Source: a virus (lineage: Duplodnaviria > Heunggongvirae > Uroviricota > Caudoviricetes). Taken from it: a DNA stretch of 64,000 nucleotides. Of this stretch, positions 13,371-34,800 are shown piece by piece; position 1 is the stretch's first letter, and the number at the start of each line of letters is the position of its first letter. A program made the position numbers and the translations under genes. Where the stretch lies: positions 1 through 64,000 of IMG/VR virus record IMGVR_UViG_3300023174_000136; one strand, given 5' to 3'. Under the pieces are notes generated by a model. That model had not been told where the DNA came from, did not search any database, and worked only from the letters and a program-made list of their open reading frames with translations.

Positions 13371-13395
13371 ATGTTGTTAGCAGAAAAGGGAAATC

Positions 13396-14918: not shown

Positions 14919-14925
14919 AAACTAA

Positions 14926-15144: not shown

Positions 15145-15151
15145 CCCTCAT

Positions 15152-16322: not shown

Positions 16323-16333
16323 GGAATTAATAA

Positions 16334-16966: not shown

Positions 16967-16977
16967 GGAGAATAACA

Positions 16978-17226: not shown

Positions 17227-17242
17227 TTCGTAGGGGAATATC

Positions 17243-17866
17243 ATGACCATTTATTACATCAACACCGGTACTAGTCCAAATAAAGGTGATGGTGATCCCC
17301 TACGCACGGCATTCAATAAAATTAATCAAAACTTCACATATTTGTCTACTGCTAGTTTCAGTGGTGGCACTGCTGGCGGAAAATATGCTATAGACGGTGG
17401 CAATGCAGCATCCGATGTTACCGGAGAAGTACTAGTTGATGTCTCGACTGTTTTAGTTAATATACTTGGCAGTGTATCAACAATCAATGGCCAGTTAATA
17501 ATAAACGGAGTTACTGGTAAAATTGAATTGTCTGCATTGCCTAATTCATTACCGGCAGTTTTTAATCTCACTGCAAATTTTAACTCTACAGGTAATTTAA
17601 GTAATTTGACCAATCTTCCAACTGGATGGAGTTATTCTCAGGCGGGAAATATAGTTACTATAAATCATAATATTGGAAGACAACCCTTTCAAATTTCATA
17701 TTGGGGTTATTCAGTTACAGAAGGTCAACGATTAAGATTCCCTACAGCGGGGTATCAAGTTAGTAGAACAACCACTTCACCATATTCATTTACTATGAAT
17801 TTAAACTCTGCGGTCACTGGTGCAGATAATAATCAATATGCAGTAGTTGGAATAATGTTTGTATGA
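17243..17866 (+). CDS. tail-fibre/virion structural protein
   Basis: N-terminal motif GDGDPLRTAFNKINQNF, followed by a Thr/Ser/Asn/Gly-rich beta-rich sequence. Confidence 0.5.
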   Translation: MTIYYINTGTSPNKGDGDPLRTAFNKINQNFTYLSTASFSGGTAGGKYAIDGGNAASDVTGEVLVDVSTVLVNILGSVSTINGQLIINGVTGKIELSALPNSLPAVFNLTANFNSTGNLSNLTNLPTGWSYSQAGNIVTINHNIGRQPFQISYWGYSVTEGQRLRFPTAGYQVSRTTTSPYSFTMNLNSAVTGADNNQYAVVGIMFV

Positions 17867-18660
17867 CACAGTTAGCTCCATCAAAGGTTCTTAAAATAAA
17901 CATTTTGAATCTAACTCCGGTTGAGCAATATGGACAAGAACCTAATCCAAATCAACCTTGGAGATTTTCTGCCAATTTAACAATTGTGCCTCAACTACAT
18001 AGTGACCCAAGAACACCTCGTCCTGGAGTATATAACGGATACGATGTTGTTGTAGGTGATTACATTCTTTCACGAACATCTAGAGTTTTAAGAATTATTC
18101 AAATCAATTACCAAGATGATGACCAAGTAACATGTGTGCTAGAAGATCATAAACGATTAAACAGTAGTGTTGATGTGACTCAATCCGGTGAAAGTTCAAT
18201 TGATACAGGCCAGGGATTACTTTTTACATTGGCTTCTGGATTGCCTGTACTGTTTCCACTGCCAGGTGATTTGGGAAATCTTAGTTTTGAAAGTTTAGTT
18301 GAGGTGTTAGGAAGATTCGTTTATTCCGAGGGATTTGCCTTGATTAATATGAATGATCTTGACATTACGAATCTACAACAAGGATCAATTTTAACTTATT
18401 CTACATCAACTGAGACTTGGAATGCAACCTCTTTAAACAGTACAACATTTTCAATATCCAGTGGAACTATTTCTCTTAAAACAATAGGAACTTCTCTAGG
18501 CGGAACAGGTATTACTTCTTATACTACTGGTGATATTCTATACGCATTATCATCATCGACTCTGGTGACTTTGTCCAAACCTTCTACTTTTTCTTTTCTT
18601 ACAATGGATAATAATGGAACACCTAGTTGGGCCAATACAGTTGACGGCGGAACTTACTAA
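17863..18660 (+). CDS. virion structural / fibre-associated protein
   Basis: ATGA overlap. 265 aa, rich in Ser, Thr, Asn and Leu. Confidence 0.45.
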   Translation: MTQLAPSKVLKINILNLTPVEQYGQEPNPNQPWRFSANLTIVPQLHSDPRTPRPGVYNGYDVVVGDYILSRTSRVLRIIQINYQDDDQVTCVLEDHKRLNSSVDVTQSGESSIDTGQGLLFTLASGLPVLFPLPGDLGNLSFESLVEVLGRFVYSEGFALINMNDLDITNLQQGSILTYSTSTETWNATSLNSTTFSISSGTISLKTIGTSLGGTGITSYTTGDILYALSSSTLVTLSKPSTFSFLTMDNNGTPSWANTVDGGTY

Positions 18661-18713
18661 ATAACATAGACTGGTTTTTACCTTAACGTCTTGTGTCCTT
18701 ATTAGGAGTTGCT

Positions 18714-21700
18714 ATGCCCGATTTACCAATATATCTAAAAAGATCATCAGTTTCTGGCAAAGTTCCGACCGCTGCTGATCTAGCCTATGGCGAATTGGCC
18801 CTAAACTACACTGATGGTAAATTATATTTTAAATTATCAAATGATGTAATTCATCAAATTCCTGATAGAGCAAATAATGATTTAAGATATCTACTACAAG
18901 CTGGTGGTACGATGACCGGTACACTGGTCATTAATGAATTGACTATTGCTAATTCAACTATGTCTGGAGCATTACAGGTTCGCGGCGGACTTGGAGTCGG
19001 AGGTAGCATTTATGCTTCTGACGTATATTCAAATGGATTAAAGATAGAGGCATTTAATACTTCAACACTAGTTGCACAATCAGTTAGTGCCACAACATCT
19101 AACTTTGCAACAACATCTGGATTTGCACAGAGTTTTAATACCAGTACACTTGTAGCAAATGCAGTCTCTGCATCTACATCAAACTATGCAACTACTAGTG
19201 GATTTGCACAGAGCTTCAACACTTCAACTCTTGTGGCAAATGCAGTATCAGCCACTACAGCCAGTTTTGCAACAACAAGTGGATATGCAGAATCATTTAA
19301 TACAAGTACACTGGTTGCAAATGCAGTATCAGCCACTACAGCCAGTTTTGCAACAACAAGTGGATATGCAGAATCATTTAATACCAGTACACTGGTTGCA
19401 AATGCAGTCTCTGCAACAACATCTAACTATGCAACAACCAGTGGTTATGCACAGAGCTTCAACACAAGTACTTTAGTGGCAAATGCGGTATCAGCTACAA
19501 CATCTAATTATGCAACTACTAGTGGTTATGCAGAATCATTTAATACTGCGACACTTGTATCAAATGCGGTTACTGCGCAGAGTTTAGGCACTGGTATTAT
19601 TAATATTCATAATGCAACTAGTTCCAGTTACTACGGTGATGGTGCATTGATTGTTGCTGGTGGTGTGGGTATAGCCAATGGATTAAATGTTTATGGTAAT
19701 ACAAATATTACAGGTAATCTCAGTGTCTCTGGTAGTATAACAGGAACTAACATATCAGTCACTGTAAATCAAGTTACAGCAACAAGTGGTGTATTTTTTG
19801 GGGACGATACAGGTGCTGGTGCATTATACGCAGGTATACCGGGATATACTCCATTTGGTCAGACTATGTTCCAGGCCGCAGGTAATTTTAATGATTACAT
19901 GGAAATAAATGTTCAAAATATCAATCCAGGAACTAAGAATAGTACAGATATAGTTGCGTCTGCTGACAATGTTGGATTTAATAATTCATTTATTGATATG
20001 GGCATTACTGGCAGCGGATGGGACGGAAGTCAGCATTATAGCTTTGGTACAGTTTTAAATCCCAATGACGGATACCTATTGGTTGGTCATAACACAGTTG
20101 ACAATAGAGGCTCATTGGTAATAGGTACGACTACCAGCGGTACAAATATTAAATTTGTAGTAGCAGCAACTAATGCAAGCTCATCATTAACTCAGGTTAC
20201 ATCAGAATCGGTTGCAATGTCTATAAATCCAGCTGGTACACTTGCAATTTCAACAACCACTGGTGCATTAGTAGTTGTTGGCGGCGTGGGTATTAGTGAT
20301 AGTCTACATGCTGGTAATATATATTCTAACGGAATACTTCTTCAAAATTTTAGTACATCTACACTGGTAGCAAATGCAGTATCAGCAACAACGTCAAACT
20401 ACGCAACAACTAGTGGATTTGCACAGAGCTTTAATACTTCGACACTGGTAGCAAATGCAGTATCAGCAACAACGTCAAACTACGCAACAACTAGTGGATT
20501 TGCACAGAGCTTTAATACAAGCACTTTAGTAGCAAATGCAGTATCAGCAACAACGTCAAACTACGCAACAACTAGTGGATTTGCACAGAGCTTTAATACA
20601 AGCACTTTAGTAGCAAATGCAGTATCGGCAACTAATTTTACTTCTGGAAGAATTGATGGTAGATTAGTTTTAAGTCCAGGAGCAAATAGTACATCTGCTT
20701 GGACTACTAATGGCGTTGCATTAATTCAATCAAGTGCTACTTATACTGACCTAACGTCTTCAGGTACTGTTGCCGCGACGTATGTTAATTTATTTGGTGC
20801 ACCGACTGTCGCGGCAACTAATACTACCACATATACAGAAGCATATAATACATATTTTAAAAGTCCAGTTGCTGGTACAAATACTGCTATTACTAGTGCT
20901 TATGCATTGGGCGCAGATTCGTTAAGTGTGAATGGTAGCGTAGGCGTCCCATTAGGTGGTGCTGGCCTCATTTTTAGTGTGGGTTCATCACAGAGCAACT
21001 CGACTATTAGAATAGGCGGCGCCTCTCAAACTGGTGAATTGACTTTTGGTAGATCCACAGTATCGCAAACTACTTATATTCAGGCTTCTGCTAACACATC
21101 TGGAACAATTAAGACCATTAACTTTGGCACAAGTGGTCTTACAAACTCAAACACTTTACTTAATATCGGTCCAGTATTAGGCACGGGAACTTTTGCAGTT
21201 AACGCAGGTACTGTAGTAACGATTGCTAATACTGCTTCATCTAATAGTACGACTACTGGTGCATTGCAGGTTGTGGGTGGAGTTGGAGTAGGAGGCAATC
21301 TCAATGTTGGCGGCGTAATTACTGCAACAAACATTTATGTTGGAACTTGGCCAGTATCAACCGGTTCAGGTGGTGGCGGACTTTCCTCTGTTGCGATTCA
21401 GTACAACGGTGCATCTATTGGATCTGCTACTACTATTAACTTTGCCACTGGCACTACAGCCACCGTTACTGGATCAGTAGTAACATTGCAAGTATTGTCA
21501 GTAAACACCGCATCATTTGCAACTACTAGTGGATTTGCACAATCATTTAATACTTCAACATTAGTTGCTAATGCAGTATCGGCATCTACATCAAACTATG
21601 CAACTACCTCTGGATTTGCACAATCATTTAATACAAGTACATTAGTTGCTAATGCAGTTTCTGCATCTACATCAAACTATGCAACAACTAGTGGTTTTGC

Positions 21701-22109
21701 ACAGAGCTTCAATACAAGTACACTCGTTGCAAATGCGGTATCGGCAACTACAGCTTCATTTGCAACAACATCTGGTTATGTGCCTAGCTATCAAACAACT
21801 GCGTCAATTACAAATAATGTGCTAACCATAAATCTAACAACAAGTACACTATTTAATGTCAATATGACTGCGGCTATAAACACAGTGACTATAACAAATG
21901 TTGCTGCATCTGGAACAATTTCCAGCTTTATACTAGCACTAAATAATCAAGGATCAGTGTATTCAGTAGTTTGGCCTACATCATTTAGATGGTCCGGAGG
22001 CACTGCGCCAACACTAACTGGTACATTGAATAAAAAAGATGTTATTGTTGCATACACAGATGACAGTGGATCTAACTATTATGCATTTGTTTCAGGAAAT
22101 AATTTATAA
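18714..22109 (+). CDS. large tail fibre with three arrays of a 27-aa (81-bp) tandem repeat
   Basis: AGGAG RBS before ATG 18714. The track's TTG at 18693 is in the same frame. The unit FNTSTLVANAVSATTSNYATTSGFAQS occurs 13 or more times. The N-terminus, LKRSSVSGKVPTAADLAYGELALNYTDGKLYFK, is fibre-like. Confidence 0.7.
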   Translation: MPDLPIYLKRSSVSGKVPTAADLAYGELALNYTDGKLYFKLSNDVIHQIPDRANNDLRYLLQAGGTMTGTLVINELTIANSTMSGALQVRGGLGVGGSIYASDVYSNGLKIEAFNTSTLVAQSVSATTSNFATTSGFAQSFNTSTLVANAVSASTSNYATTSGFAQSFNTSTLVANAVSATTASFATTSGYAESFNTSTLVANAVSATTASFATTSGYAESFNTSTLVANAVSATTSNYATTSGYAQSFNTSTLVANAVSATTSNYATTSGYAESFNTATLVSNAVTAQSLGTGIINIHNATSSSYYGDGALIVAGGVGIANGLNVYGNTNITGNLSVSGSITGTNISVTVNQVTATSGVFFGDDTGAGALYAGIPGYTPFGQTMFQAAGNFNDYMEINVQNINPGTKNSTDIVASADNVGFNNSFIDMGITGSGWDGSQHYSFGTVLNPNDGYLLVGHNTVDNRGSLVIGTTTSGTNIKFVVAATNASSSLTQVTSESVAMSINPAGTLAISTTTGALVVVGGVGISDSLHAGNIYSNGILLQNFSTSTLVANAVSATTSNYATTSGFAQSFNTSTLVANAVSATTSNYATTSGFAQSFNTSTLVANAVSATTSNYATTSGFAQSFNTSTLVANAVSATNFTSGRIDGRLVLSPGANSTSAWTTNGVALIQSSATYTDLTSSGTVAATYVNLFGAPTVAATNTTTYTEAYNTYFKSPVAGTNTAITSAYALGADSLSVNGSVGVPLGGAGLIFSVGSSQSNSTIRIGGASQTGELTFGRSTVSQTTYIQASANTSGTIKTINFGTSGLTNSNTLLNIGPVLGTGTFAVNAGTVVTIANTASSNSTTTGALQVVGGVGVGGNLNVGGVITATNIYVGTWPVSTGSGGGGLSSVAIQYNGASIGSATTINFATGTTATVTGSVVTLQVLSVNTASFATTSGFAQSFNTSTLVANAVSASTSNYATTSGFAQSFNTSTLVANAVSASTSNYATTSGFAQSFNTSTLVANAVSATTASFATTSGYVPSYQTTASITNNVLTINLTTSTLFNVNMTAAINTVTITNVAASGTISSFILALNNQGSVYSVVWPTSFRWSGGTAPTLTGTLNKKDVIVAYTDDSGSNYYAFVSGNNL
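19053..19590 (+). repeat. 81-bp coding tandem repeat array 1 (about 6.5 copies)
   Basis: Repeated DNA and peptide units are visible. Copies differ at a few codons (SNY/ASF, FAQ/YAE). Confidence 0.8.
20347..20640 (+). repeat. 81-bp coding tandem repeat array 2 (about 3.5 copies, nearly identical DNA)
   Basis: The unit tttaatac...gcaaatgcagtatcagcaacaacgtcaaactacgcaacaactagtggatttgcacagagc is repeated almost exactly. Confidence 0.8.
21507..21790 (+). repeat. 81-bp coding tandem repeat array 3 (about 3.5 copies)
   Basis: Same unit, with SAS/SAT variants. Confidence 0.8.
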
Positions 22110-22591
22110 TGAGTAATTGGGCTTATGTTGAAAATAATCAAGTAACTGATCTTTATTATGATCTGCCAACTAATTGGCGCAACATCAGTAACTTTTTTAC
22201 TCTTGCGGATAATCTTGCGTTTTTGCAAACATTCGGCTGGTATCCTGTTGAAAAAGTAACTCCAAGTTTTAATTCATCTACCCAAGAATTATCTGCGCCA
22301 AGATTTGAAATTACAGATGACAAAGTTTTAGAAATTAGAGATATCATTGATCTTCCTGTTATTCCCCAAGAAGTATTGTTGAATCAACAATGGAATGTGA
22401 TAAAAGCCGAACGCGATCAATTGATGATACAAAATGATTGGAGATATGCTCGAAACTCGCGAGAAATTAGACTAGGTTTGACTCCTACTGAAACTTTAGA
22501 AACAATAGATAATTATATGCAAGCATTAGCAGACATTACTAAACAAACAGATCCATTTAATATAATATGGCCAACATATAACGGAGTATAA
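22109..22591 (+). CDS. hypothetical protein, possibly a fibre assembly/chaperone protein by position
   Basis: TAATG-coupled to the fibre gene. 160 aa. I recognise no motif. Confidence 0.45.
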   Translation: MSNWAYVENNQVTDLYYDLPTNWRNISNFFTLADNLAFLQTFGWYPVEKVTPSFNSSTQELSAPRFEITDDKVLEIRDIIDLPVIPQEVLLNQQWNVIKAERDQLMIQNDWRYARNSREIRLGLTPTETLETIDNYMQALADITKQTDPFNIIWPTYNGV

Positions 22592-22592
22592 T

Positions 22593-25500
22593 ATGCCATT
22601 CTTATTAGAAAAATGGTTATTGACAATTGCACAACAACAAACTTCAGTAACTCCAGTAACTTCTGGATATCTTTATCAAGGTGGTATTAATGCTAATCTT
22701 ACTCAAATTGGAGTAAGTTCCTGGTCTCAGGTTTCATCAGGTTATGCAGACGATAATACCTATGTTCTTCAAGATTCCACGGCTAAAATTACAGTCTTTT
22801 CTACTAGTAATTCTTGGGGACAACTGGGATCAGGAGTCACTGGATCTAGTGGAGGAACTAGTTATCAGCATTCTGGGTCTTGGAAAACTGTTAGCACGGA
22901 TGGAAATTCTGTTATAGGTATAAAAACAGATGGTACATTGTGGGTCTGGGGAAAAAATGACATAGGTCAATTGGGCCTTGTTAATGTAGTTACACTTTCT
23001 AAAGTATCTCCTAGTGGCGATCATACTCTTGGAATTGATCCATTAGGAAAATTATATGCATGGGGAAGAAATCATGTAGGTCAATTAGGTGTTAATAACA
23101 CTACACTACAACCAAATATTCCTACATTAATAGATTCAGGATCTTGGATTCAAGTATCAGCTAGTCTCGGTAATTTTAGTAGTGCAGCAATTCGCGGTGA
23201 TAATACTCTTTGGACATGGGGCGGTAATTCCAGTGCTCAATTAGGACATGGAGATACTGAATCTAAAAGTTCCCCTACGCAAATAGCAGGATCTTGGGCG
23301 CAGGTTTCCATGGGAACAAGTCACACACTGATGCTGAAAACAGATGGCACTGTTTGGGGGACAGGTGTTAATAATAAGGGACAACTAGGAACTTTATCAC
23401 AATCTTGGACTCAAGTTGCAATTGGAGCAAGCCACTCTCTTGCAATTAGCTCTAATGGAACACTCTGGGGATGGGGTTCTAATGGTTATTTACAAATTGG
23501 ATATAGTGTTGGTGGATTTTATAGAAGTCAGCCAGGTTTAGTAACATCAGGATCTTGGAAATCAGTTAGTGCTGGTGTTAGCTATAGTTTGGCGATTGAT
23601 AGCAATGGACTTCTTTATGCCTGGGGCGATAATTTATGGGGACAATTAGGTACAGGAACAAGTGATGATCAGTATTCCACTCCTCAGTTAGTGTCTGGAG
23701 GCGGATCGTGGAAGATAGTATCTGCTACTGAAAGAGGCACGATAGCAATAAAAACAGATGGTACTCTTTGGGCCTGGGGGTATAATCAGCTGTTTAATCA
23801 ACTTGGTCTGAGTTTTACAGATAATTATTATTTAGTTCCTGCCAGACCTTCAAATTCCGCTGGAAGCTGGAATACAGTATCAGCTGGTTCTTCTCACACC
23901 TTGGCAATAAAATCAGATGGTACACTTTATGCCTGGGGTGATAATACTTATGGTCAATTAGGTAATCAACCTTCAGCAGCACTATCATGGTCGCAAATAG
24001 TTTTAGGTAATGCTCACACAGTTGCACTTAGGTCCGATGGAGCATTGTTTACTTGGGGCGCAAATACATACGGGCAGTTAGGTAATAGTAGCTCAACTGC
24101 GGCACAGTCGCCATTCAAAGTAGGATCAAGTTCTTGGGCATTTGTTTCCGCTGGAGCATCACACTCTGCTGCCATTGACATTAATGGATCTCTTTACTTA
24201 TGGGGTCTTAATACTGGTGGCAGACTTGGCGACGGTACAGTAGTATCAAGATCGTCGCCGGTTCAAGTATCGGGTGGTGGAGTTTGGACTCGCGTGGCAT
24301 GTGGACTAACCCATACAACTGCAATAAAATCTGGCGGACTATTATTTTCGTGGGGCGCAAATACTAGTGGTGTTTTAGGACTAGGTACATCAACTGCGGC
24401 TGCTTCAAGTCGTTCGACTCCTCAACAAATTGGTGCCAGTACTTGGTCATTTGTTTCATCTATAAATCTTCATGTTGCAGCTATAACTACTACTGGATTA
24501 CTATTTGCATGGGGCGACGGTGCCGATAGTAAAATTGGAGACGGATTTGCAGTGAACCGTTCATCTCCGGTTCAAGTAGGAACTGGATTTTCTTGGAAAA
24601 CAGCAAGTGCTGGAATAAACCACACGTCCGCAATAAGAACGGATGACACTTTATGGCTGTGGGGACTAGGAACCACTGGACAACTTGGTGATAATACAAG
24701 AGTTACAAAAGCTAGTCCTGTACAGGTTGCAGGCACAGGAACATGGGCCGCAACTGCATCAGGTAATAGTTATACAGTAGCAATCAAAACAGACGGATCA
24801 CTGTTTTCTTGGGGAGCTACGAGTCATATTTTAGGTGATGGCACTACTGTGAGTAGAAGCAGCCCAGTGCAGATTGCTTCATTCGCAGGAACATGGACGT
24901 CGGTTTCTGCAAACTTAAGCACTGCGGTTCTGGTAAACAACAATCGAAGTATTTGGGGATGGGGTGCAAACGCCTCGGGGCAGTTAGGTATTGGAGATAT
25001 TACTACCAGAAGTTCTCCGGTACAAATTGGTGCATCGTTTGCTACAGCAGGAGTTTCTCTAATTTCTTCTGCAACTAATTGGACCGCAGTCTCTGCCGGT
25101 CAATATCATTCTTTGGCCTTAAAATCAGATGGTACACTATGGGCTTGGGGGTCAGGAGTATATGGTCAGTTAGGTCAAGGTAATATTACTTCTTATGCCA
25201 GTCCCGTACAAGTTGTTGGTACATGGACAGCAATAGCAGTGGGAGTGAATCATTCATTGGCAATTAAAAATGATCTTAAAGTTTATGGATGGGGCAGAGG
25301 TGACCTTTATGCTCTTGGAGGCAGTTCTAACATATATACTCCTACTATACTCTACAATTCAACTAATTCAAATTCAATTGCAGCCGGAGGCAACAATTCT
25401 GCGTACTTGATTCCAGGAAATGATAACCTATATACCACGGGATTGAATACTCAAGGACAAAATGGATGGTTCAATACATTTGCTCCTTCTGGTACCGGAT

Positions 25501-28037
25501 TTTCACCGGTTACAAACATAACTGCATTTTCACTTAGTCCTAAACAAATATTGCCAACACAAAGTGGATTTTGGTCGAGTACAACTGCAACTGATATTTC
25601 TGCAGGTGGTTTACATAGTCTTGCCGTCATTTATAACACAAATCCGGATTCAGTTTATGCAATAGCATGGGGTGATAACACTTATGGGCAGTTAGGAAGA
25701 GGAAGTGTAGGATCGCTCGGCTTTGGTCAGGAGGCTACTCCGAGTGTTATGCTAACTCCCGCTGTTGTAGCACTGTCTTATGTAGTGGCAGTTTCTGCTG
25801 GCGGACAACACTCGTTGGTTTTGGATAGATCTGGCAATCTGTCCTCAACGGGAAATAATAATTTTGGTCAATTGGGTACAACATTGTATTTTACAGCAAC
25901 TGGATATTGTAGACCAATGCTTTCGCCTGTAGTAGCGTGTAGTGCTGGATTTTATCACTCATTAGCAATAACATCTAATAGAACTGTATGGGCATGGGGC
26001 GAAAATAGTTATCGTCAAGTTGATAACACAGGAATCTCTCGTAGTTCTCCAGTTCAAGTTTCGGCCACATTATCTGCTAATTTTATTGCTGCTGGTAGCA
26101 TATCAACATTTATAATTCAAACTGCAACTAACACTTTGTTTGTAGCAGGTTATAATCTTTATGGACAATTAGGAATTGGTACAAATAACACCTTTTCTGC
26201 ACTTGTAAGTTCAAGACAAACAACCTTCACAAGCCCATTACAGCTTGGAACCGATATGTGGTCTGCTGTTTCATCAGGTTATTTGTATAATACCGCAATA
26301 AGATCAGATGGGTCGTTGTGGGCATGGGGTACTAATAGCACAGGACAACTTGGAGATATCACAACAGTCACACGCTCTAGTCCTGTTCAAATTGGCACAG
26401 GTGTTTCATGGAAAGCAGTTAGTGCAGGTTATGATCATACATTGGCAATCACTAGCCAAGGAACATTGTACACATGGGGTGATAATTCTAGTGGAAAATT
26501 AGGAACAGTGGACTTGGTAACTCGTTCATCACCTGTTGCTATTGGTGCAGGAACTTGGAATTCAGTAAGTGCTGGTAGAAGTCATAGTTTAGCCATAAAC
26601 AGTCAACGGCAGATGTTTGGGTGGGGATCATATGCTGGTGGAACATTAACGCAAAATTATTCATGGACACAGTCAGCCTCTGGATTATCTCATGCTGCTG
26701 CAATTAAAGCAGATAACACATTATGGCTATGGGGGAAAAATACTTACGGACAGCTTGGAGATTTAACAACAAACTCACGATCTAGTCCTGTTCAAGTTTC
26801 CGGCGGAGGTTTGTGGCAACAGGTTGCCACCGGCGCTTATAGTACTTTTGGCATTAAAACAGATGGAACTCTTTGGGCATGGGGCAGAAATACTCAGGGA
26901 GAACTAGGTACAAATAGCACTGTTAGTGCATCTAGTCCTGTTCAAGTTGCAGGCGGAGGATCTTGGAAAACTGTTGCCGGTAGCAGCAACAGTATTAGTT
27001 TTTTTACATATGGTATTAAAACAGATGGAACTCTTTGGGCATGGGGAGACAACAGTTATGGACAGCTTGGTAAAGGTGATACGATTGCTAGATCAAGTCC
27101 TGTACAAGTTGGCACTGCAACATCATGGTCAAAATTACAAGTAGGATCTTTTGGTCCCTGTGTTATTGACACTGCAGGAAGATTGTGGGTATGTGGATAT
27201 AATAATGACGGAGCGTTAGCACAAAATGATATAGCTGGTCGATCAACACTAGTGCAAGTTACCAGTGGCGCGGTGTCATGGACAACAGTTTCAGCTTCTT
27301 TTGGCGTTTTAGCAATTGATGTTGCTGGTAACTTGTGGGGATGGGGATATAATATATATGGTTCATTGGGAATAGGCGACCAGACGCGCAGAAGCACTCC
27401 TGTACAAGTTACCGCAGTTGCATCTACATGGACCGACGTTGCTTTTATAGGCCATCCTTCTAAGGGTAATAGACAGAGTGCAATAGGAATTGCAGGCAAT
27501 CAAATGTATGGCTGGGGATTTTCAGTCCTTGCTAATACATTAAATATTAACCTTACTCCTGTTACAAATGGATTAAGTGGATTATCATGGAAACCATTGC
27601 CATCTATGAATAGTGTAGCAACATTAATCACACAACGAGGACAACTATGGACATGGGGCTACAATGGACAGGGAAATTTAGGAATAGGAACAACAGATTT
27701 TTATAGTAGCTATTATGGTTATTATGAAATACAACGCGCTTCTTTGCCAATGGACGCAGTATCAGCATATTCTCTAGTCGCAAGATCTAGTCCTGTGCAA
27801 GTCGGTTCGAGTAATCAATGGCAGTCAGCATTTGCCGGAAACAATTTTAATTTAGCAATTAATAATAATGCACTCTATGGGTGGGGATTAAATAACACTA
27901 ATGCAAGCATATCTGGTAGCTTGAGTAATCCTGCTTTCCTTGGTCTACCAGATACATATATTGCTGATCCACAGTTACTTGCAACAACAGCAACATCGGC
28001 ATCGGCAAAGAATCTAACATACATATTAAAGAATTGA
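22593..28037 (+). CDS. giant RCC1-repeat (beta-propeller) protein, 1814 aa
   Basis: About 30 repeats of the RCC1-like signature ...G.LW.WG.N.YGQLG.G....SSPVQV... run throughout. RBS ACGGAG. Confidence 0.75.
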   Translation: MPFLLEKWLLTIAQQQTSVTPVTSGYLYQGGINANLTQIGVSSWSQVSSGYADDNTYVLQDSTAKITVFSTSNSWGQLGSGVTGSSGGTSYQHSGSWKTVSTDGNSVIGIKTDGTLWVWGKNDIGQLGLVNVVTLSKVSPSGDHTLGIDPLGKLYAWGRNHVGQLGVNNTTLQPNIPTLIDSGSWIQVSASLGNFSSAAIRGDNTLWTWGGNSSAQLGHGDTESKSSPTQIAGSWAQVSMGTSHTLMLKTDGTVWGTGVNNKGQLGTLSQSWTQVAIGASHSLAISSNGTLWGWGSNGYLQIGYSVGGFYRSQPGLVTSGSWKSVSAGVSYSLAIDSNGLLYAWGDNLWGQLGTGTSDDQYSTPQLVSGGGSWKIVSATERGTIAIKTDGTLWAWGYNQLFNQLGLSFTDNYYLVPARPSNSAGSWNTVSAGSSHTLAIKSDGTLYAWGDNTYGQLGNQPSAALSWSQIVLGNAHTVALRSDGALFTWGANTYGQLGNSSSTAAQSPFKVGSSSWAFVSAGASHSAAIDINGSLYLWGLNTGGRLGDGTVVSRSSPVQVSGGGVWTRVACGLTHTTAIKSGGLLFSWGANTSGVLGLGTSTAAASSRSTPQQIGASTWSFVSSINLHVAAITTTGLLFAWGDGADSKIGDGFAVNRSSPVQVGTGFSWKTASAGINHTSAIRTDDTLWLWGLGTTGQLGDNTRVTKASPVQVAGTGTWAATASGNSYTVAIKTDGSLFSWGATSHILGDGTTVSRSSPVQIASFAGTWTSVSANLSTAVLVNNNRSIWGWGANASGQLGIGDITTRSSPVQIGASFATAGVSLISSATNWTAVSAGQYHSLALKSDGTLWAWGSGVYGQLGQGNITSYASPVQVVGTWTAIAVGVNHSLAIKNDLKVYGWGRGDLYALGGSSNIYTPTILYNSTNSNSIAAGGNNSAYLIPGNDNLYTTGLNTQGQNGWFNTFAPSGTGFSPVTNITAFSLSPKQILPTQSGFWSSTTATDISAGGLHSLAVIYNTNPDSVYAIAWGDNTYGQLGRGSVGSLGFGQEATPSVMLTPAVVALSYVVAVSAGGQHSLVLDRSGNLSSTGNNNFGQLGTTLYFTATGYCRPMLSPVVACSAGFYHSLAITSNRTVWAWGENSYRQVDNTGISRSSPVQVSATLSANFIAAGSISTFIIQTATNTLFVAGYNLYGQLGIGTNNTFSALVSSRQTTFTSPLQLGTDMWSAVSSGYLYNTAIRSDGSLWAWGTNSTGQLGDITTVTRSSPVQIGTGVSWKAVSAGYDHTLAITSQGTLYTWGDNSSGKLGTVDLVTRSSPVAIGAGTWNSVSAGRSHSLAINSQRQMFGWGSYAGGTLTQNYSWTQSASGLSHAAAIKADNTLWLWGKNTYGQLGDLTTNSRSSPVQVSGGGLWQQVATGAYSTFGIKTDGTLWAWGRNTQGELGTNSTVSASSPVQVAGGGSWKTVAGSSNSISFFTYGIKTDGTLWAWGDNSYGQLGKGDTIARSSPVQVGTATSWSKLQVGSFGPCVIDTAGRLWVCGYNNDGALAQNDIAGRSTLVQVTSGAVSWTTVSASFGVLAIDVAGNLWGWGYNIYGSLGIGDQTRRSTPVQVTAVASTWTDVAFIGHPSKGNRQSAIGIAGNQMYGWGFSVLANTLNINLTPVTNGLSGLSWKPLPSMNSVATLITQRGQLWTWGYNGQGNLGIGTTDFYSSYYGYYEIQRASLPMDAVSAYSLVARSSPVQVGSSNQWQSAFAGNNFNLAINNNALYGWGLNNTNASISGSLSNPAFLGLPDTYIADPQLLATTATSASAKNLTYILKN

Positions 28038-28045
28038 AGGTAAAA

Positions 28046-29770
28046 ATGCACGAAATTGATAAAATGCTACAACTACAGCTTGTTGGAGAACACCAAGCTG
28101 CCAAAGAACTTTCAGACCGATTAGAAAATATTGGTAAAGATCAGATTCTAGATCCTAATGGCAAAAATACCGAGGATATTTGGTTTAGGCACTGCTTTAA
28201 TCGAGGATGGTTCAAACTACAGGAAGGCGAATATCAAGAGGGAAGCCAACTATTAGAGTATGGTAGATTTCTTCAAGTCTATGGTAGTCCTCCATTAAAA
28301 ACCACTAAGCCTATCTATAATCCTGATCAACATGATCTTGAGGGTCGATCTTTAATTATTAGTCTTGAAGGCGGGTTTGGTGACGAAATTATCCATGCAA
28401 GATTTGCAACATCATTTAAGAAAAAAGGCGCCAAAAAGGTTTATATAGCTGCTGCTCCAGAGTTAGTAAGTTTGCTTGAACGTATCGAAGGAGTCGATGG
28501 AGTAATACTCAGAGATCAAGCAGATACAATAGAACATGATTATTGGTTACCGGGATTTAGTGCTGGTTGGTTAGCAGGATACAATTACGATACACTGCCT
28601 AGTGATCCATACCTAAATGCAAATCCAGGCAGTCAGCAAATTTGGAAAAGCATCATTAATAGCGACAAGATAAAAGTTGGTATAAGATGGGCAGGAAATC
28701 CTAAATTTGAACATCAGCAGTTCAGAAGATTTCCTGAAGAATTTATAATCAATTTGTCCAAATACAAGGAACTGCAACTCTATAGTTTTCAAAAAGATTT
28801 CAATACAGTCAATTTGCCTGAAAATGTCGTAGATTTAAATAATCTGTTGATCAGCTGGGAAGATACTGCTGCTGCAATTTCATGTTTAGATATTGTCATT
28901 ACCAGTTGCACCAGTGTTGCTCATCTATCAGCTGCATTAGGCAAAGAAACTTGGGTATTAACTCCGATCTTGCCATATCATACTTGGACTTATCAATGTC
29001 CTGAATCTAACACTTCACCATACTATAAATCAATCACGCTTTATCGTCAACGCACTCCAGGAAAATGGAATGATTGTTTTCAACAACTATACAAGGATAT
29101 CGAGCAGCGATTCAATTTAGAACACATAGATTTGCCCGATCAAGATAAAACTTATCAAAAATTAAATCTTGGATGTGGTGTTAAACATGCTTCGGGATTT
29201 ATTAATGTTGATCGATCTCAGATTTTTTCACCAGACGAGTGTGTTGATCTAGAAGTGTTTCCGTGGCCATGGGCAGATAATTCAATTGATCACATTATAG
29301 CCAAGGATGTGCTTGAACATCTTGGTGATACTTCACAAGATTTTATAAACATAATAAAAGAAATGTATAGAGTCAGTGCAAATGGAGCACTCTGGGAAAT
29401 TCAGGTCCCTCACTGGAGATCCGATAACGCACTAGGCGATCTCACGCATAAACAAATAATAACCAAAAATACATTCCAATTATTTGATCGACAATATGCC
29501 TATGACAAATTGAAAAGCGGGTACAGTGAATCATTATTGGCATTTGAGCATGACATAGATTTAATGATTTGCGGCACAGAATTTGACTATGCCAAAAACT
29601 GGCAAGATAGAATTGCTAAAAATCAAATTTCTGTCGAAGAGCTTGAATATGCTTTAAATACATTTAATAATGTTGCGATTTCAACCAGACTTTTAATTCA
29701 AGTCCATAAGCCTGGTAGATTTAACAACAACGAATTGATGGCATTAATTGATGATTTGCAGAGACCTTAA
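28046..29770 (+). CDS. bifunctional glycosyltransferase family 9 (heptosyltransferase-like) plus class I SAM-dependent methyltransferase
   Basis: The N-terminal half has GT9-like EGGFGDEII...DIVITSCTSVAHLSAALGKETWVL. The C-terminal half has methyltransferase motif I LNLGCGVKHASGFINVD and IIAKDVLEHL. ATG 28046 follows GAAGG. The track's TTG at 28034 is in the same frame. Confidence 0.6.
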   Translation: MHEIDKMLQLQLVGEHQAAKELSDRLENIGKDQILDPNGKNTEDIWFRHCFNRGWFKLQEGEYQEGSQLLEYGRFLQVYGSPPLKTTKPIYNPDQHDLEGRSLIISLEGGFGDEIIHARFATSFKKKGAKKVYIAAAPELVSLLERIEGVDGVILRDQADTIEHDYWLPGFSAGWLAGYNYDTLPSDPYLNANPGSQQIWKSIINSDKIKVGIRWAGNPKFEHQQFRRFPEEFIINLSKYKELQLYSFQKDFNTVNLPENVVDLNNLLISWEDTAAAISCLDIVITSCTSVAHLSAALGKETWVLTPILPYHTWTYQCPESNTSPYYKSITLYRQRTPGKWNDCFQQLYKDIEQRFNLEHIDLPDQDKTYQKLNLGCGVKHASGFINVDRSQIFSPDECVDLEVFPWPWADNSIDHIIAKDVLEHLGDTSQDFINIIKEMYRVSANGALWEIQVPHWRSDNALGDLTHKQIITKNTFQLFDRQYAYDKLKSGYSESLLAFEHDIDLMICGTEFDYAKNWQDRIAKNQISVEELEYALNTFNNVAISTRLLIQVHKPGRFNNNELMALIDDLQRP

Positions 29771-30464
29771 TTTACATTACAGTCATAATACAAAAGTTGA
29801 AAAAGCATATATCATAACAGTAACCGATAATAGCAAGAGTCAACAATACTCACAACGGTGCCAGGCAAGCTGCGATAGGGTTGGCATGCCATGGCAAACA
29901 TGGGAAGCTTACAACGGATACAACAATCCTATAACGGTTCCTGGACATGCAACCAATCATGCTGTTATGAATATATTAAAAGTTACCGATCACTATTTGA
30001 CCCGAGGTGAAGTTGCTTGCGCACTCAGTCATATTAGTTTGTGGAGTCATTGTGCTACTATAGATCAGCCCATTGTTATTTTAGAGCACGATGCCGTTAT
30101 GATCCAAAGATTTGAAGAGCATAGTTCATTTAATTCCATTATCTATCTTGGTGGAGCAGAATGGGTAAAACATAACTGGCCAATATTAAATATACCTCCA
30201 CATGCAACAGAGGGTCCAAATTATCACTTTATTTGTCGAGCGCACGCTTATTCAATTGATCCTACTATGGCAAAAAATCTTTTAGCTCATGTGATTAAAC
30301 ATGGAATTTGTGCTCCTTTAGATATCATGTTAAGAGCTGATTTGTTTAATATCACGCATAATGGTGTTTTTGCCTACGATGACGGAGATGCTGCCCTGAC
30401 AACAATTGAAAATCGACCCGCTGAAGGCAGAACTACTAAACGCAATGACAGGCTAGAGTATTAA
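29748..30464 (+). CDS. glycosyltransferase family 25 (LPS/LOS beta-glycosyltransferase-like)
   Basis: GEVACALSHISLWSHCA...PIVILEHD matches the GT25 signature (GEiGCxLSHxxLW). Confidence 0.65.
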   Translation: MMICRDLNLHYSHNTKVEKAYIITVTDNSKSQQYSQRCQASCDRVGMPWQTWEAYNGYNNPITVPGHATNHAVMNILKVTDHYLTRGEVACALSHISLWSHCATIDQPIVILEHDAVMIQRFEEHSSFNSIIYLGGAEWVKHNWPILNIPPHATEGPNYHFICRAHAYSIDPTMAKNLLAHVIKHGICAPLDIMLRADLFNITHNGVFAYDDGDAALTTIENRPAEGRTTKRNDRLEY

Positions 30465-31072
30465 TGTATAAGTTTACTTGGGATTTTAATTTTAACAAAG
30501 AAGGTGGCGCAAAAGCAAATATTGCTGCACTGATCAATGAATTTGGCCTTCCAACAACTATTGTTGAAATAGGATCATACGAAGGATTAACTACTTTTTG
30601 GATGAATGATGAAATTGGACCGTTGAATCCTAATCTTAAAATTTATAGTATAGATCCGCATGGCGGAAGTATAGACATAAAAGACGATTTTAACACAGTT
30701 GCTGAAAATTTTCACCACAATATGCAGGTATGCGAAAATAATAAAATCACTCACCTTAATAAAAAAAGTGAGCATGGCCTCGTTGATTTAATAAATCAAA
30801 GAATAGAAGCTGAATTGATTTATATTGATGGTGATCACACTGCCGGTACTGTATTAACTGACCTAGTCTTATCGTGGCAAATATTGAAAAATGGCGGAGT
30901 TATACTCTGTGACGATACAGTGGTGTGGAAATACAAAGATAAAAACGGAGCCTGTTCTGCGCAAATGAGTCCTAGACTAGCGGTTGAAACATTCATTCAA
31001 TGCCATTGGCATGAACTTGAAATTTTGGCCTTGCCAAACAGTACTCAAACAGCATTTAGGAAAATTATATGA
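30464..31072 (+). CDS. class I SAM-dependent methyltransferase (CmcI/TylF-like, Methyltransf_24-type)
   Basis: TIVEIGSYEGLTTFW, IYSIDPHGG, LIYIDGDHTAGTVLTDL and NGGVILCDD are the motifs of this family. Confidence 0.6.
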   Translation: MYKFTWDFNFNKEGGAKANIAALINEFGLPTTIVEIGSYEGLTTFWMNDEIGPLNPNLKIYSIDPHGGSIDIKDDFNTVAENFHHNMQVCENNKITHLNKKSEHGLVDLINQRIEAELIYIDGDHTAGTVLTDLVLSWQILKNGGVILCDDTVVWKYKDKNGACSAQMSPRLAVETFIQCHWHELEILALPNSTQTAFRKII

Positions 31073-31863
31073 ACAAAATAGTTTTTACCGCAGGATTGCC
31101 AAGAGCCGGATCTACTCTTCTTGGCGCAATATTAAATCAAAATCCTAGATTTTCAGCAGGTATTACAAATCCCTTGGCACCATGTATTCGATCAGTAATT
31201 AAAGAAACCTCGACTAGACTAGGAAATAGACAAGTTTGCGATATTGAAACAAGAAAGCGCATGGTTAAATCTCTCATAGAAATGTATCATGAAGAGGACT
31301 CTGCTGAAGTAATTTTTAACCATAACCGTACTTGGCCACTGGCTTTGAACATTATCAAGGATATATATCCAGATGCAAAATTAATATTATTAGTTCGTGA
31401 CCTAGGATGGATATTAGATAGTTTTGAAGTTTTATTAAGAAAGAATCCCTATGTATATTCAAGATTATTTGATAATCTTGAGACGGATACAGTTTACGCT
31501 AGGTGTGAATCTCTTTTGAAAGAAAAAGGCACAGTTGGATTTGCCTATGATTGTGTTAAACAAGCAATGACAAGTGAATTTTCTGAAGATATTATGATCA
31601 TTGATTATGATTCTTTTGTGTCGAATCCCAAATTAGCAATTGAAAATTTATATAATTTCATTGATGAACCGCTATTTGAGCATGACTTTGAAAATGTTGA
31701 GAGTAGTTTTGACGAATATGATGAAGATTTAAGTGCTCCAGGATTACACACTGTAAAACGCAGAGTGGAGTTTGTTCCTAGAAAATCAATTATTCCTCCT
31801 GATATTTGGTTAAGTGTTGAGGGCAAAGAAGTTTGGAAAATTCAAAATTCAAAGAATAGCTAA
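31069..31863 (+). CDS. sulfotransferase (PAPS-dependent)
   Basis: FTAGLPRAGSTLLGAIL is the 5'-PSB P-loop. LLVRDLGWILDSF is a 3'-PB-like motif. Confidence 0.6.
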   Translation: MNKIVFTAGLPRAGSTLLGAILNQNPRFSAGITNPLAPCIRSVIKETSTRLGNRQVCDIETRKRMVKSLIEMYHEEDSAEVIFNHNRTWPLALNIIKDIYPDAKLILLVRDLGWILDSFEVLLRKNPYVYSRLFDNLETDTVYARCESLLKEKGTVGFAYDCVKQAMTSEFSEDIMIIDYDSFVSNPKLAIENLYNFIDEPLFEHDFENVESSFDEYDEDLSAPGLHTVKRRVEFVPRKSIIPPDIWLSVEGKEVWKIQNSKNS

Positions 31864-31893: not shown

Positions 31894-34800
31894 GTGTCCA
31901 AAATAAAACTACGTAGAGATCTAGCTGCCAACTGGGAAAGCATTAATCCTGTGTTATCCTCGGGAGAGCCTGGATTTGATTTAACATCTAAAAAATTAAA
32001 AATAGGCAATGGTATCACCGCATGGAACGGATTACCATATGTTTCTTCGGATAATACAGCTACTCCAGGACCACAGGGTCCACAAGGTATACAAGGTATA
32101 CAAGGATCAGAAGGACCTCCTGGACCACAAGGTATTCAAGGACCTCGAGGACTTCAAGGATCTCAGGGTGTTCGTGGCGTACAAGGAATACAAGGACTTC
32201 GCGGCTCAACCGGAACACAGGGTATTCAAGGACTACAAGGCGCACAAGGTGCGGCAGTAAGATTACTTGGCACTGTTACCGATTTTACATCATTGCCAGG
32301 ATCGGCCGAAATTGGCGACGGGTATATTACGGTTGATACTGGCGATCTTTGGTTTTGGGGAACAAATACACAATGGTATGACGTTGGTAGAATTGTTGGA
32401 CCCCAGGGCATTCAAGGAATCCAGGGTCCCGTAGGTCCACAAGGTCCACAAGGGTCCACGGGCACTCAAGGAATTCAAGGTATTGAAGGTCCTCAAGGCG
32501 AACAAGGTCCTCGAGGACTTCAAGGAAATACCGGAACTCAAGGCATTCAAGGTCCACAAGGACTTCAAGGACTTCAGGGTCTAGTAGGTCCCGGAGTTGC
32601 ATCTGGTGGAACTATTGGGCAAATATTAGTCAAAGCTAGTTCAAGTGATTACGATACCGCATGGTCAATACCATCAACCATAGCATTTACCGTTACTAAC
32701 ATAAGTTATTTTACAAATGATGTAGGATATATCACCTCAACTTCGTCATTGATAAATGGAACTGCAACTTTCTCTCTCAATACAGCCGGTACACTTACTT
32801 CGCCTGGATCTATTATTCCCGATACGGATTTATCATATGATTTGGGATCTACGTCTAGTCAATGGCGTAGTTTGTATGTAGGAACTGGCACTATCTATAT
32901 AGGCGGAGTAGCTCTAGGCGTTAACCAGGACAACTATGTCACAGTCGATGGTAATCCTATTATTACATTAAACACCGCCGGTAATATCACACTTCAGGGT
33001 AATAATATTGTTGGTACTGTTACTATATCAGACACGGCGCCTGTAGTCAACACAGGAACACAATGGTTTAATACTGTTGAAGGACGTACTTATATTGCTG
33101 CCAACGGTTTGTGGTTAGATTCTAACCCAACACAAATTCCAAGTCCGGAAACATATCTAGATGGATTGGCAATTGATGGTACCATTATTAGTACTGCTAA
33201 TGTTGACAGCGATGCTATTGTGGTAGATGGCGGGGATAATACAAAGTTATCTGTCAGCAACAATAGTGTAAAGATACAAACTCCCGGAGAGCAAACTCGT
33301 TCATTTTGGGTAGCAGAATACGGTGGTATAACCACCGCGACTACTACGTCTACATTTACTCTAGGCACCGGTGCTTTCTATGATAGTCTAGGCAATGTAT
33401 ATGTACTAGGAGCTATACAGTATGGTGACTTTAATTTTAACAATGTAGATAGTCTATTTTTAAAATATGACACTAATGGTAATTTACTATGGCATAGGAC
33501 ATGGCATGATGATGGAGGCTATAATTGTGGCACCGTCAATCAAGCATTTGCAATAGACAGTAATGACCGTATCTATTGGCTTGCCACTGATGCTACTGGA
33601 TACAATTGTTGGACTGGTTATTTTGATACCGATGGAAATCTCGGGCTTGGCGGAACAGCCCAACAAAGTTTAGGATTTACCAACGGAAGCCTTTCTGCTA
33701 CCGATATAGCATGTGATAATTCTGGAAATTATTATATAGCAGGTTCTTACTATAATAGCAATGATACTCCGGTGGTGATTAAAATCGACGGAGACACTGG
33801 AAATGTAATTTGGAACGGTAATATAATACCTGAGGATTTTGAAGACCTTCCTAGTTTCGGACGATATCGTGCTGTAACTGTTAACCCGGTGTCTGGTGAT
33901 GTTTGGGCCATAGGTGATTACGACGACGATGGCGGTTTATATGCCATGCTATCTAAGTGGGACATCAACGGTACACATCAATGGACCAAAAAATTAGTTA
34001 CTCAAACCGGGGATATAGCGTCTGCGGTAATATTTAACAGTGGTTTTGTTTATACCATAGTAAACGATGACGGCGAACAAAAAGCGGTGGTGTCTAAATT
34101 TGACACAGATGGAGTTTTGATATGGGCTTCAGATCTGGCAGTAGGAGCGGTAGATCCTATTGCGAATTACTTGGAGAACTCGGGCGCATACGATTTAAGT
34201 TTTGATGCCAATGGCAATGTCTATGTAACTGGAATAATACCATCTATTAGTAGCACTAATCAGTTGTGGATAACAAAACTTGATCCTTCTAATGGTGAAA
34301 TGTTATACAGTCGTATGCTAGGAACACAATCGGGAGTAGCTATTATTGATGGATCTACCTATGGATTTAACAATGCTATTGGACACAGGGTAGGCGATAT
34401 CTATGAAGATAAAATTGCTGTTACTGCCATAACTCCCTCAGATATTAATGACAGTACTAGTACTAACGAAATAAGAATAATAGTAGCGCAACTGCCTATT
34501 GATGGTAGTATTGTTGGCACATTTGATAATGTAAGTATACTTGACATTACAAATGACTTGAACAGTATCTGTTCAACCGGTACATATACTGTAACCACCT
34601 TAATGTGGTCAACCTCTACCGCAGAAACACTACAATCAACCAGTACATTAGGCATTAGTTATGTTACTGATATAATTGGACTATCTGGCGAAACAATTTC
34701 TTTAGACAGTGTCAGTAGATCTTCTACCGTAACCAACACTTGGACATTTGTCAACAATAATATCATACTACCACCAGGTGGTGATATCCTTAACAGCAAT

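Follow-up and report, generated by a model that had tools for sequence, protein, structure and literature searches.

A tandem RCC1-propeller protein in the tail-fibre operon of an environmental phage as a candidate fibre-associated adhesin

Receptor-binding proteins decide which bacteria a phage infects, and almost all of those that have been characterised are, to our knowledge, trimeric fibres or spikes. Here we analyse the gene for a 1,814-aa protein of tandem RCC1-type repeats (the multi-RCC1 protein) that lies among tail-fibre genes in a 64,000-nucleotide stretch of tailed-phage DNA, positions 1 to 64,000 of the IMG/VR record IMGVR_UViG_3300023174_000136 (the window; coordinates are those of this stretch unless another contig is named). 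The gene occupies 22593..28037 on the plus strand as a single open reading frame (ORF) with an ATG start and zero internal stops; a GGAG motif lies 8-11 nt 5' of the ATG, which itself stands 2 nt past the stop codon of a tail-fibre chaperone gene. The product consists of 13.6% serine, 13.5% glycine and 10.4% threonine, and contains 77 tryptophans. The original prediction, made from the sequence alone, had described it as built almost wholly of RCC1 repeats, and this is borne out: the ORF is exact, and the Pfam families WD40_RLD (E 3e-294, 974.8 bits against a cut-off of 150, 10 stretches), RCC1 (PF00415; E 5.9e-197, 638.7 bits against 21.7, 23 stretches) and RCC1_2 (PF13540; E 4.1e-164, 529.4 bits against 22, 20 stretches) match far above their cut-offs.

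A strict regular expression for the W.WG.N..GQLG core finds 20 copies, an iterated hidden Markov model (HMM) trained on the repeats of this protein itself recognises 34 of them within residues 23-1809, and one more can be read by eye at residues 1624-1682 (NQMYGWGF...SWKPL...), which brings the total to about 35 with a blade period of about 50 aa; the first count of about 30 signature copies was thus a slight underestimate of repeats that are real. Only some 22 N-terminal residues stand outside the array. The repeats are listed here in sets of seven, a nominal grouping whose propeller boundaries are good to within one blade (Pfam's best whole-propeller stretch, residues 1037-1355, is offset from it by about one blade):

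22593..22658 (+), the N-terminal 22 residues outside the array, MPFLLEKWLLTIAQQQTSVTPV, a short amphipathic motif common to many homologues
22659..23606 (+), residues 23-338, repeats 1-7, nominal propeller 1, from the repeat HMM, the first two repeats weak
23607..24644 (+), residues 339-684, repeats 8-14, nominal propeller 2, from the repeat HMM
24645..25832 (+), residues 685-1080, repeats 15-21, nominal propeller 3, from the repeat HMM, with long insertions in repeats 20-21
25833..26864 (+), residues 1081-1424, repeats 22-28, nominal propeller 4, from the repeat HMM
26865..28034 (+), residues 1425-1814, repeats 29-35, nominal propeller 5, from the repeat HMM, one repeat read by eye only and the last degenerate

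Some 35 repeats suffice for five propellers of seven blades (5x7), in keeping with the four or more first proposed. That each ring has seven blades is supported only indirectly, through the repeat count itself, the counts in homologues (among the best 120, the repeat number modulo 7 is 0 in 32 proteins, 6 in 29, and each of the other classes holds 8-14) and the roughly 395 columns of a structure model that align to the seven-bladed UVR8, the model being of moderate quality (pLDDT ~60).

The multi-RCC1 protein belongs to the RCC1 fold class. All 30 of the 30 chains found at E<=1e-10 by a phmmer sequence search of the Protein Data Bank (PDB) are of the RCC1 family, UVR8, HERC1/2, RPGR, RCC1 and RCC2 included, and the E-values to structures of RCC1-like domains (RLD) run from 2e-51 to 1e-24. 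AlphaFold models were made of two overlapping segments, A (residues 1-1080) and B (residues 1014-1814), from alignments of 29 and 21 homologues; their mean predicted local distance difference test (pLDDT) scores are both moderate (59.9 and 61.6), and the well-predicted stretches, with scores of 70-93, are regular four-stranded blades. Segment A is at its best over residues 450-900 (pLDDT ~70-90), while segment B reaches 65-90 in nominal propeller 4 and 75-93 over residues 1400-1600 and falls below 50 over residues 1687-1814. Poorly predicted are the first ~95 residues, the last ~130 residues and the insertion-rich stretch 903-981, which coincides with the insertions in repeats 20-21. In a Foldseek comparison with the PDB, UVR8 comes out on top (E 1.4e-30, template modelling score 0.62-0.65 on the target, ~395 aligned columns) and the top 42 matches are all UVR8, RPGR, HERC1/2, RCC1, RCC2 or WBSCR16, with E from 1e-30 to 5e-19; multi-propeller proteins of the WD40 type do not come up before about 1e-15. 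The Kelch, WD40 and NHL propeller families are accordingly ruled out by Pfam, PDB sequence matches and fold, and the initial assignment to the RCC1 type stands. Eukaryotic members of the RLD superfamily (UVR8, RCC1, RPGR, HERC1/2; PDB 4dnu, 1a12, 4jhn, 3kci) share the repeat signature and the fold class, but they carry one propeller per domain and are intracellular, whereas the phage protein has about five in tandem and almost nothing else and is encoded in a tail-fibre operon. It is a fold relative of RCC1 only, and no Ran-binding or chromatin-binding function is expected.

The repeat array is ancient and real, and not an assembly artefact, because Tandem Repeats Finder (TRF) detects no DNA-level tandem repeat inside the gene and because collinear orthologues exist in independent metagenome assemblies (contigs L001 and L002 at 48% amino acid identity, L003 at 89%). 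Recent expansion, like an assembly artefact, was rejected on the TRF result. Duplication of whole propellers was rejected as well: there is no lag-7 similarity signal and adjacent blades are the most similar, so the array has not grown by recent whole-propeller duplication. An antisense ORF of 147 aa (27056-27499, minus strand) lies wholly within the gene and is most likely a by-product of the repeat composition, not a gene.

All genes between 17243 and 38274 are co-directional and abutting, and the original placement of the multi-RCC1 gene among tail-fibre genes proved correct, since its neighbours are a fibre, a Phage_tail_APC chaperone and fibres with Mtd_N and collagen matches. The neighbouring genes and the further fibre or spike genes of the window are:

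18693..22109 (+), a 1,138-aa fibre, matched over its last 120 aa by phrog_9017 'tail fiber protein' (E 4e-8)
21801..22106 (+), the fibre-tip domain, fibre residues 1037-1138 (phrog_9017), with an Asp-box-like T.DGG..W motif at its end
22109..22591 (+), a 160-aa chaperone of tail-fibre assembly (Tfa/APC-like), with a Phage_tail_APC match that clears the gathering score (E 7.7e-8) and matches to the 'tail fiber assembly' families PHROGs 4912 and 188
28034..29770 (+), a 578-aa protein, here called the partner, with a Methyltransf_11 match (E 2.7e-4) at residues 399-451
29748..30464 (+), a GT25 glycosyltransferase (Pfam E 3e-15)
30464..31072 (+), a Methyltransf_24 protein (Pfam E 8e-17)
31069..31863 (+), a sulfotransferase (Pfam E 1e-15)
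31894..36777, a 1,627-aa fibre with Mtd_N and collagen matches (Pfam)
36782..37537 and 37534..38274, two LamG proteins (Pfam), the second match below the cut-off
38510..40339, a 609-aa protein with an Mtd_N N-terminal domain (Pfam)
42201..44360, a protein with a borderline endosialidase-like match (E 1e-5)
51780..53366, a spike with Mtd_N and a pectate-lyase-like part

The fibre-tip domain has no significant match in the PDB or Pfam. Three arrays of an 81-nt (27-aa) tandem repeat, SFNTSTLVANAVSATTSNYATTSGFAQ, occur in the 1,138-aa fibre gene, with 74-94% matches (19051-19567, 20349-20632 and 21518-21777). The partner likely starts at the ATG at 28046; its C-terminal part may, on a weak match, resemble an S-adenosylmethionine (SAM) methyltransferase, and its N-domain of about 360 aa is possibly a tetratricopeptide repeat (TPR) region plus a GT9-like glycosyltransferase, TPR_2 and Glyco_transf_9 matching below threshold only and in 2 of 6 members. 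A PDB profile search with this N-domain gave no significant match and an NCBIfam search was empty. The four putative modification genes (28034-31863, plus strand) stand in the middle of the tail-fibre operon and could serve the glycosylation, methylation or sulfation of virion proteins, or a modification of the host surface. A promoter and terminator scan gave nothing above chance. Fibres or spikes are encoded by no fewer than four and probably five distinct genes in 35 kb (18693-22109, 31894-36777, 38510-40339, 42201-44360 and 51780-53366), several of them with an Mtd_N-type N-terminal motif, and the set suggests a multivalent adsorption apparatus.

The surroundings of the gene are conserved far beyond the window. 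Neighbourhoods were looked up in the contigs of eleven homologues and in two cultured cyanophages, and the order tip domain, Phage_tail_APC, multi-RCC1, partner is repeated in some ten divergent contigs as well as in BUCT-ZZ01, a cultured phage; the neighbourhood is seen in L001, L018, L019, L020, L021, L022, the P0094 contig and BUCT-ZZ01. Homologues of the tip domain (~100 aa), in the form of a large fibre's C-terminus or of one to three stand-alone ORFs of about 125 aa, lie just 5' of the multi-RCC1 gene in L001, L006, L007, L011, L018-L020, L021 (three copies) and L022, and in L006 and L007 the tip domain is immediately 5' of the RCC1 gene. A Phage_tail_APC gene (154-175 aa) abuts the 5' end of the RCC1 gene in L001, L018-L022 and BUCT-ZZ01, the match in the last being just below the gathering score, and the P0094 contig has in the chaperone position a 174-aa gene without a Pfam match. 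L004 and L005 are the only two among the contigs looked up in which no tip or chaperone was detectable. On the 3' side, homologues of the partner, either full-length or as the 345-363-aa N-domain, stand beside RCC1 genes in L001, L003, L004, L006, L008 (the cyanophage S-SRM01), L011, L018 and L020-L022, and glycosyltransferase (GT25), methyltransferase and sulfotransferase types follow the RCC1-partner pair in L001, L003, L018, L020, L022, the P0094 contig and S-SRM01; an APS kinase is present as well in the P0094 contig, and APS kinase, epimerase or HldE-like genes accompany the set in some contigs.

The multi-RCC1 proteins of the environmental contigs range from 1,775 to 3,134 aa. Two giant RCC1 genes stand side by side in L005 (1-9493, 3,546 aa, and 10001-18724, 2,907 aa) and in L007 (10001-18445, 2,814 aa, and 18507-28445, 4,121 aa), so that the paired genes of each phage-like contig encode over 6,000 residues of RCC1 propellers.

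The closest counterpart in a cultured phage is that of the Synechococcus phage BUCT-ZZ01 (L011, ON615601.1), which has the same gene order, with identities of 41% for the fibre tip, about 40% for the RCC1 protein and 50% over the full length of a 571-aa partner, and an APC-like protein of 166 aa. Its RCC1 protein, UTS52180.1 (5974-8076), differs in having only 700 aa and 14 Pfam RCC1 repeats (which would be two propellers), and the phage is a T4-like cyanophage (Kyanoviridae), unlike the window phage with no close cultured relative; the label 'BNR repeat domain protein' attached to UTS52180.1 is wrong, given an RCC1 match at E 2e-130. S-SRM01 has three single-propeller RCC1 genes downstream of those for the long-tail-fibre distal subunit and the baseplate wedge; genes for a sulfotransferase, a glycosyltransferase and a TPR protein, the homologue of the partner, are interspersed among them.

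Comparison with the near-identical relative L001, a 166-kb contig syntenic with the window, sets the RCC1 gene apart from its surroundings. The flanking proteins are 93-99.6% identical (the ligase 99.5%, the product of 17863..18660 99.6%, the Mtd_N/collagen fibre 95.5%), and genes a few kb from the chaperone 97-99.6%, but there is one block of collapsed identity, made up of the chaperone (53%), the RCC1 protein (47.6%) and the partner (69.5%). The divergence begins in the C-terminal part of the 1,138-aa fibre: its first ~650 residues are 89% identical by tblastn, with 95-100 identical residues per 100 alignment columns outside indels, its extreme tip is 86% identical, and much of its indel variation comes from differences in the number of 81-nt repeats. 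Within the RCC1 protein the identity to L001 ranges from 26% to 92% per repeat, with repeats 14-15 the best conserved (80-92%), and against L003 (89% overall at the amino acid level) 40-codon blocks along the gene switch back and forth between 68% and 100% nucleotide identity. The RCC1 block is thus the hypervariable cassette of this phage, and the block-wise swings in identity indicate mosaic recombination, a pattern typical of host-specificity genes. Between orthologues, the structural G/W/N core of the repeat is conserved at 0.9-1.0, against 0.16-0.36 for repeat positions 8, 10-11, 16-21, 35-36 and 41-42 and the insertions; such a conserved scaffold with variable loops would be consistent with a binding function.

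The N-terminus tells a different part of the story. A conserved peptide of about 12 residues, MPFLLEKWLLTI in the query (MPFLLEKWLL...), recurs in homologues P0030, P0037, P0052, P0065, P0093-95 and others, and the motif M-x-[LF]-x-[EKQ]-x-[LW]-L-L, exact or slightly varied, can be recognised by eye in roughly 40 of the 120 top homologues. Identity to P0037 is 65% over the first 22 residues as compared with 31% in the repeat that follows, and AlphaFold places a helix, at low confidence, at residues 3-11, the rest of the segments being all-beta blades. Other homologues begin with at least four different N-terminal modules, for example MIKDILLQVSRSY..., MAFTESGVTLTSYF..., ..DGVDLG..LVTKDYLISVYP.. 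and MTTRWPGGII..., and modular N-termini of this kind are as expected of an anchor joined to a variable binding body; the peptide may be read as a putative docking element. No signal peptide or transmembrane segment is evident in the multi-RCC1 protein. A few bacterial homologues have, by eye, N-terminal signal-like sequences and surface-protein domains. That the phage protein lacks such signals and these few bacterial homologues appear to carry them fits an extracellular binding scaffold.

RCC1 proteins are widespread in phages. The window protein matches phrog_7220 (E 4.6e-151), phrog_4219 (E 1.6e-148) and phrog_16766 (E 2.3e-121), three RCC1 families that PHROGs places in the category 'DNA, RNA and nucleotide metabolism'. 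Relatives turn up by tblastn in 50 phage records, and the best fold matches in BFVD are RCC1 proteins of more than 1,000 aa from 'uncultured Caudovirales'. The initial view of RCC1 repeats as mainly eukaryotic and in part bacterial, and of such a phage protein as unusual, therefore has to be given up. The same is true of its size: in a large protein collection at least 5,878 proteins match at E<=1e-20 (8,000 candidates scored), many of them 2,000-3,100 aa long, and of the best 120 homologues 108 have at least 35 repeats, with up to 60, and most of the 120 exceed the window protein in size; with its 35 repeats it thus ranks among the smaller members of its class. The kind of protein is thus known and common in environmental phages, and experimentally uncharacterised. 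We found no paper testing the function or location of any phage RCC1 protein, most matches to 'RCC1' being strain numbers of the Roscoff culture collection, nor one linking RCC1 to receptor binding, propellers or host range.

Several other phages bear on where such proteins act. Clostridium phage phiCD211 (relatives LIBA2945 and phiCDIF1296T) encodes a 1,759-aa protein, PHICD211_20030, with about 20 repeats by HMM, directly after the tape-measure, minor-tail, tail and tail-fibre genes. It differs from the window protein in its sequence (~24% identity) and in layout, with repeats over residues 52-1467 and then a non-RCC1 C-terminal part of about 290 aa; the phage itself is a large one with a Gram-positive host, its tail module begins with the tape-measure gene, and no adjoining APC chaperone or partner is annotated. 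Gp12 of Pseudomonas phage PollyC occupies the slot of T7 gp17 and joins a Phage_T7_tail N-domain (E 6.7e-5, 23.1 bits, just under the cut-off of 25.2) to RCC1 repeats, which shows that an RCC1 propeller can form the distal, presumably receptor-binding, part of a fibre; RefSeq labels it 'tail fiber assembly' despite the tail-fibre slot. In contrast to the window protein, which has no anchor and five propellers, PollyC gp12 has a covalent anchor domain and RCC1 repeats over ~430-710 (one or two propellers). A third group belongs to phrog_4219, one of the families matched here: the products W70_237-239 of Escherichia phage W70 were detected in virions by electrospray ionisation tandem mass spectrometry (PMC11370258), gp1 of Cronobacter phage GAP32, which is among the fold matches of our models, is a structural protein by mass spectrometry (PMC5259590), and for the eleven RCC1-like genes of phAPEC6 the authors of that study guessed at an inner-body role in organising DNA (PMC7247149). 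These proteins are single propellers (about 40 kDa), and their genes often form multi-copy arrays at a distance from the main tail cluster.

By building on these observations we hypothesise, with moderate confidence, that the multi-RCC1 protein is a virion-borne accessory adhesin of the tail-fibre apparatus. The chain would consist of a short N-terminal peptide and, strung behind it like beads, about five RCC1-type propellers of seven blades each; it would be co-expressed with the 1,138-aa fibre's distal tip and chaperone (Tfa/APC), on or beside which it would probably be mounted; and the variable propeller loops would help to set the host range by binding a glycan or protein ligand on the host surface. 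We infer its presence in the virion, its docking at the fibre tip through the N-terminal peptide and its binding of a receptor or ligand from several lines of evidence: the operon position among fibre, APC chaperone, Mtd_N/collagen fibre and LamG genes; the neighbourhood conserved in about ten contigs and BUCT-ZZ01; the host-range-like divergence and mosaicism; the homologues in tail positions in PollyC, phiCD211 and S-SRM01; the homologues in W70 and GAP32 virions; and the pattern of scaffold and loops together with the modular N-termini and the lack of a signal peptide or transmembrane segment. The structural or adhesin role entertained from the start is therefore plausible, and better backed than before by gene order, hypervariability and the mass spectrometry of homologue virions.

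An analogy is offered by classical fibres, in which a separate tip adhesin, gp38, sits on gp37 (T2/T6/S16-type) and Tfa of Mu and P2 stays on the fibre tip. The order of fibre, chaperone or adhesin, and next gene is the same, and in gp38-type systems the separate distal protein is the fast-evolving determinant of specificity; gp38 and RCC1 propellers have no relation in sequence or fold, and a tip attachment of the latter is suggested by gene neighbourhood only. Several further points weigh against an adhesin on the fibre. The Pfam scan finds no recognisable virion-anchor domain (Mtd_N, Phage_T7_tail) and only 22 residues precede the repeats; the protein is without the trimeric shaft of classical fibres; any propeller would be expected to combine variable loops with a conserved core; the AlphaFold models reach only moderate quality (mean pLDDT ~60), both termini being of low confidence; the RCC1 proteins of W70 and GAP32 are single propellers, and the W70 genes, by their locus numbers, lie away from the main structural cluster; and the constant company of glycosyl-, methyl- and sulfotransferases could mean glycan metabolism and not adsorption.

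The last point leads to an explanation that we regard as unlikely though worth stating, in which the multi-RCC1 protein would never enter the virion and would instead be an in-cell scaffold, lectin or substrate of a phage glycan-modification island, acting with the partner, GT25, the methyltransferases and the sulfotransferase in a system that could serve to reshape the host envelope or to make a glycan carrying methyl or sulfate groups. In its favour, the partner, GT25, methyltransferase and sulfotransferase genes come after the RCC1 gene in nearly every case, joined in some contigs by APS kinase, epimerase and HldE-like sugar-nucleotide genes, and the protein is very rich in Ser, Thr and Gly. 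Yet the fibre-tip domain and the tail-fibre chaperone are equally constant as upstream neighbours, the RCC1 proteins of phiCD211 and PollyC occupy tail positions without such enzymes, homologues are found in virions, and the protein has no signal peptide or membrane segment. A role as substrate of an N-glycosyltransferase was rejected, as NxS/T sequons are not enriched (31 versus 26.4 +/- 4.4 in shuffles). The glycan enzymes and an adhesin are in any case reconcilable, as the enzymes could decorate a virion protein.

Rather improbable, in our judgement, is a virion protein located off the fibre, either internal to the head, or ejected, or decorating the head or tail, with the N-terminal peptide as a packaging or targeting signal. 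The internal proteins of T4 carry N-terminal capsid-targeting peptides, which the very short conserved peptide common to homologues (MPFLLEKWLL...) loosely recalls; the W70 and GAP32 proteins are virion-associated without being assigned to a fibre, and the inner-body role proposed for phAPEC6 (PMC7247149) points the same way. A 190-kDa chain of rigid propellers is nevertheless an unlikely ejected cargo, its gene sits between the fibre chaperone and other fibre genes and is co-inherited with the tip domain in about ten contexts, PollyC fuses a propeller to a tail-fibre N-domain, and the sequence has no sign of DNA binding (77 K+R against 70 D+E, no basic tail). A functional analogue of eukaryotic RCC1, that is, a guanine-nucleotide exchange factor or a factor condensing chromatin or the nucleoid, is suggested by nothing but the family name and the Pfam and PHROG labels, and we consider it very improbable: bacteria, as far as we know, have no Ran GTPase, the best structural matches (UVR8, RPGR, HERC2) are generic protein-binding propellers, and the context is one of tail fibres and not of replication or nucleoid genes.

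The fibre-associated adhesin can be extended into a more general proposal, which we put forward tentatively and with considerable doubt. Giant multi-propeller RCC1 proteins (4-8 propellers, 1,400 to >4,000 aa) might be the distal host-recognition element of an undescribed, widespread tail-fibre supermodule of aquatic phages, in which the chain would dock through its ~12-residue N-terminal peptide on a small, APC-held tip domain and diversify by blade-level mosaic recombination, the chain or the fibre being decorated with a methylated or sulfated glycan by the adjoining enzymes. The RCC1 chains would then be receptor-binding proteins of a new architectural class, one that is not trimeric, consists of propellers in tandem and may be glycosylated. 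If only the fibre-tip adhesin is true, chains of RCC1 propellers would still amount to a numerous class of host-recognition modules that has gone unnoticed: public data contain thousands of homologues, the nearest ones looked at come from phage-like contigs, and the current labels 'regulator of chromosome condensation' (DNA metabolism), 'BNR' and 'alpha-tubulin suppressor' hide them from host-range prediction. New here are the definition of the module (tip, APC, multi-RCC1, partner, enzymes), the hypervariable cassette and a cultured, tractable carrier phage, as the conserved module in BUCT-ZZ01 on the model host Synechococcus elongatus PCC 7942 provides a testable system. The adjoining glycan-modifying enzymes raise in addition the question of phage-directed glycosylation or sulfation of virion proteins.

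As to the phage itself, the window is a fragment of a tailed-phage genome without a close cultured relative: megablast of the multi-RCC1 gene and 20 kb of the window against 50,697 phage records gave no match, and the DNA ligase of the window is at most 36% identical to that of any phage record (Bacillus phages). A scan of bacterial genomes gave only distant matches (25-37%) in Bacteroidota and other metagenome-assembled genomes, with no indication of a host. Permuted transfer-messenger RNAs (tmRNAs) are typical of Alphaproteobacteria, some Betaproteobacteria and Cyanobacteria, and one of this two-piece type lies at 63301-63589 on the plus strand (Rfam tmRNA_permuted, 87.5 bits against a gathering score of 47, E 2e-15; predicted by ARAGORN at 63273-63680 with the tag peptide AKTVNVNFVAHNDNDLSVMEIAA), which may be a hint at the host. 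The window further encodes, on the plus strand, an SPFH/Band 7 protein (8222-9613) and two types of cell-wall hydrolase, Hydrolase_2 and GH19 (12330-12989 and 16334-16966), to which the L001 orthologue adds a Peptidase_M15, and L001 carries at 1642-1860 a gene for a 72-aa eIF-1a/IF1-like protein of the oligonucleotide/oligosaccharide-binding (OB) fold.

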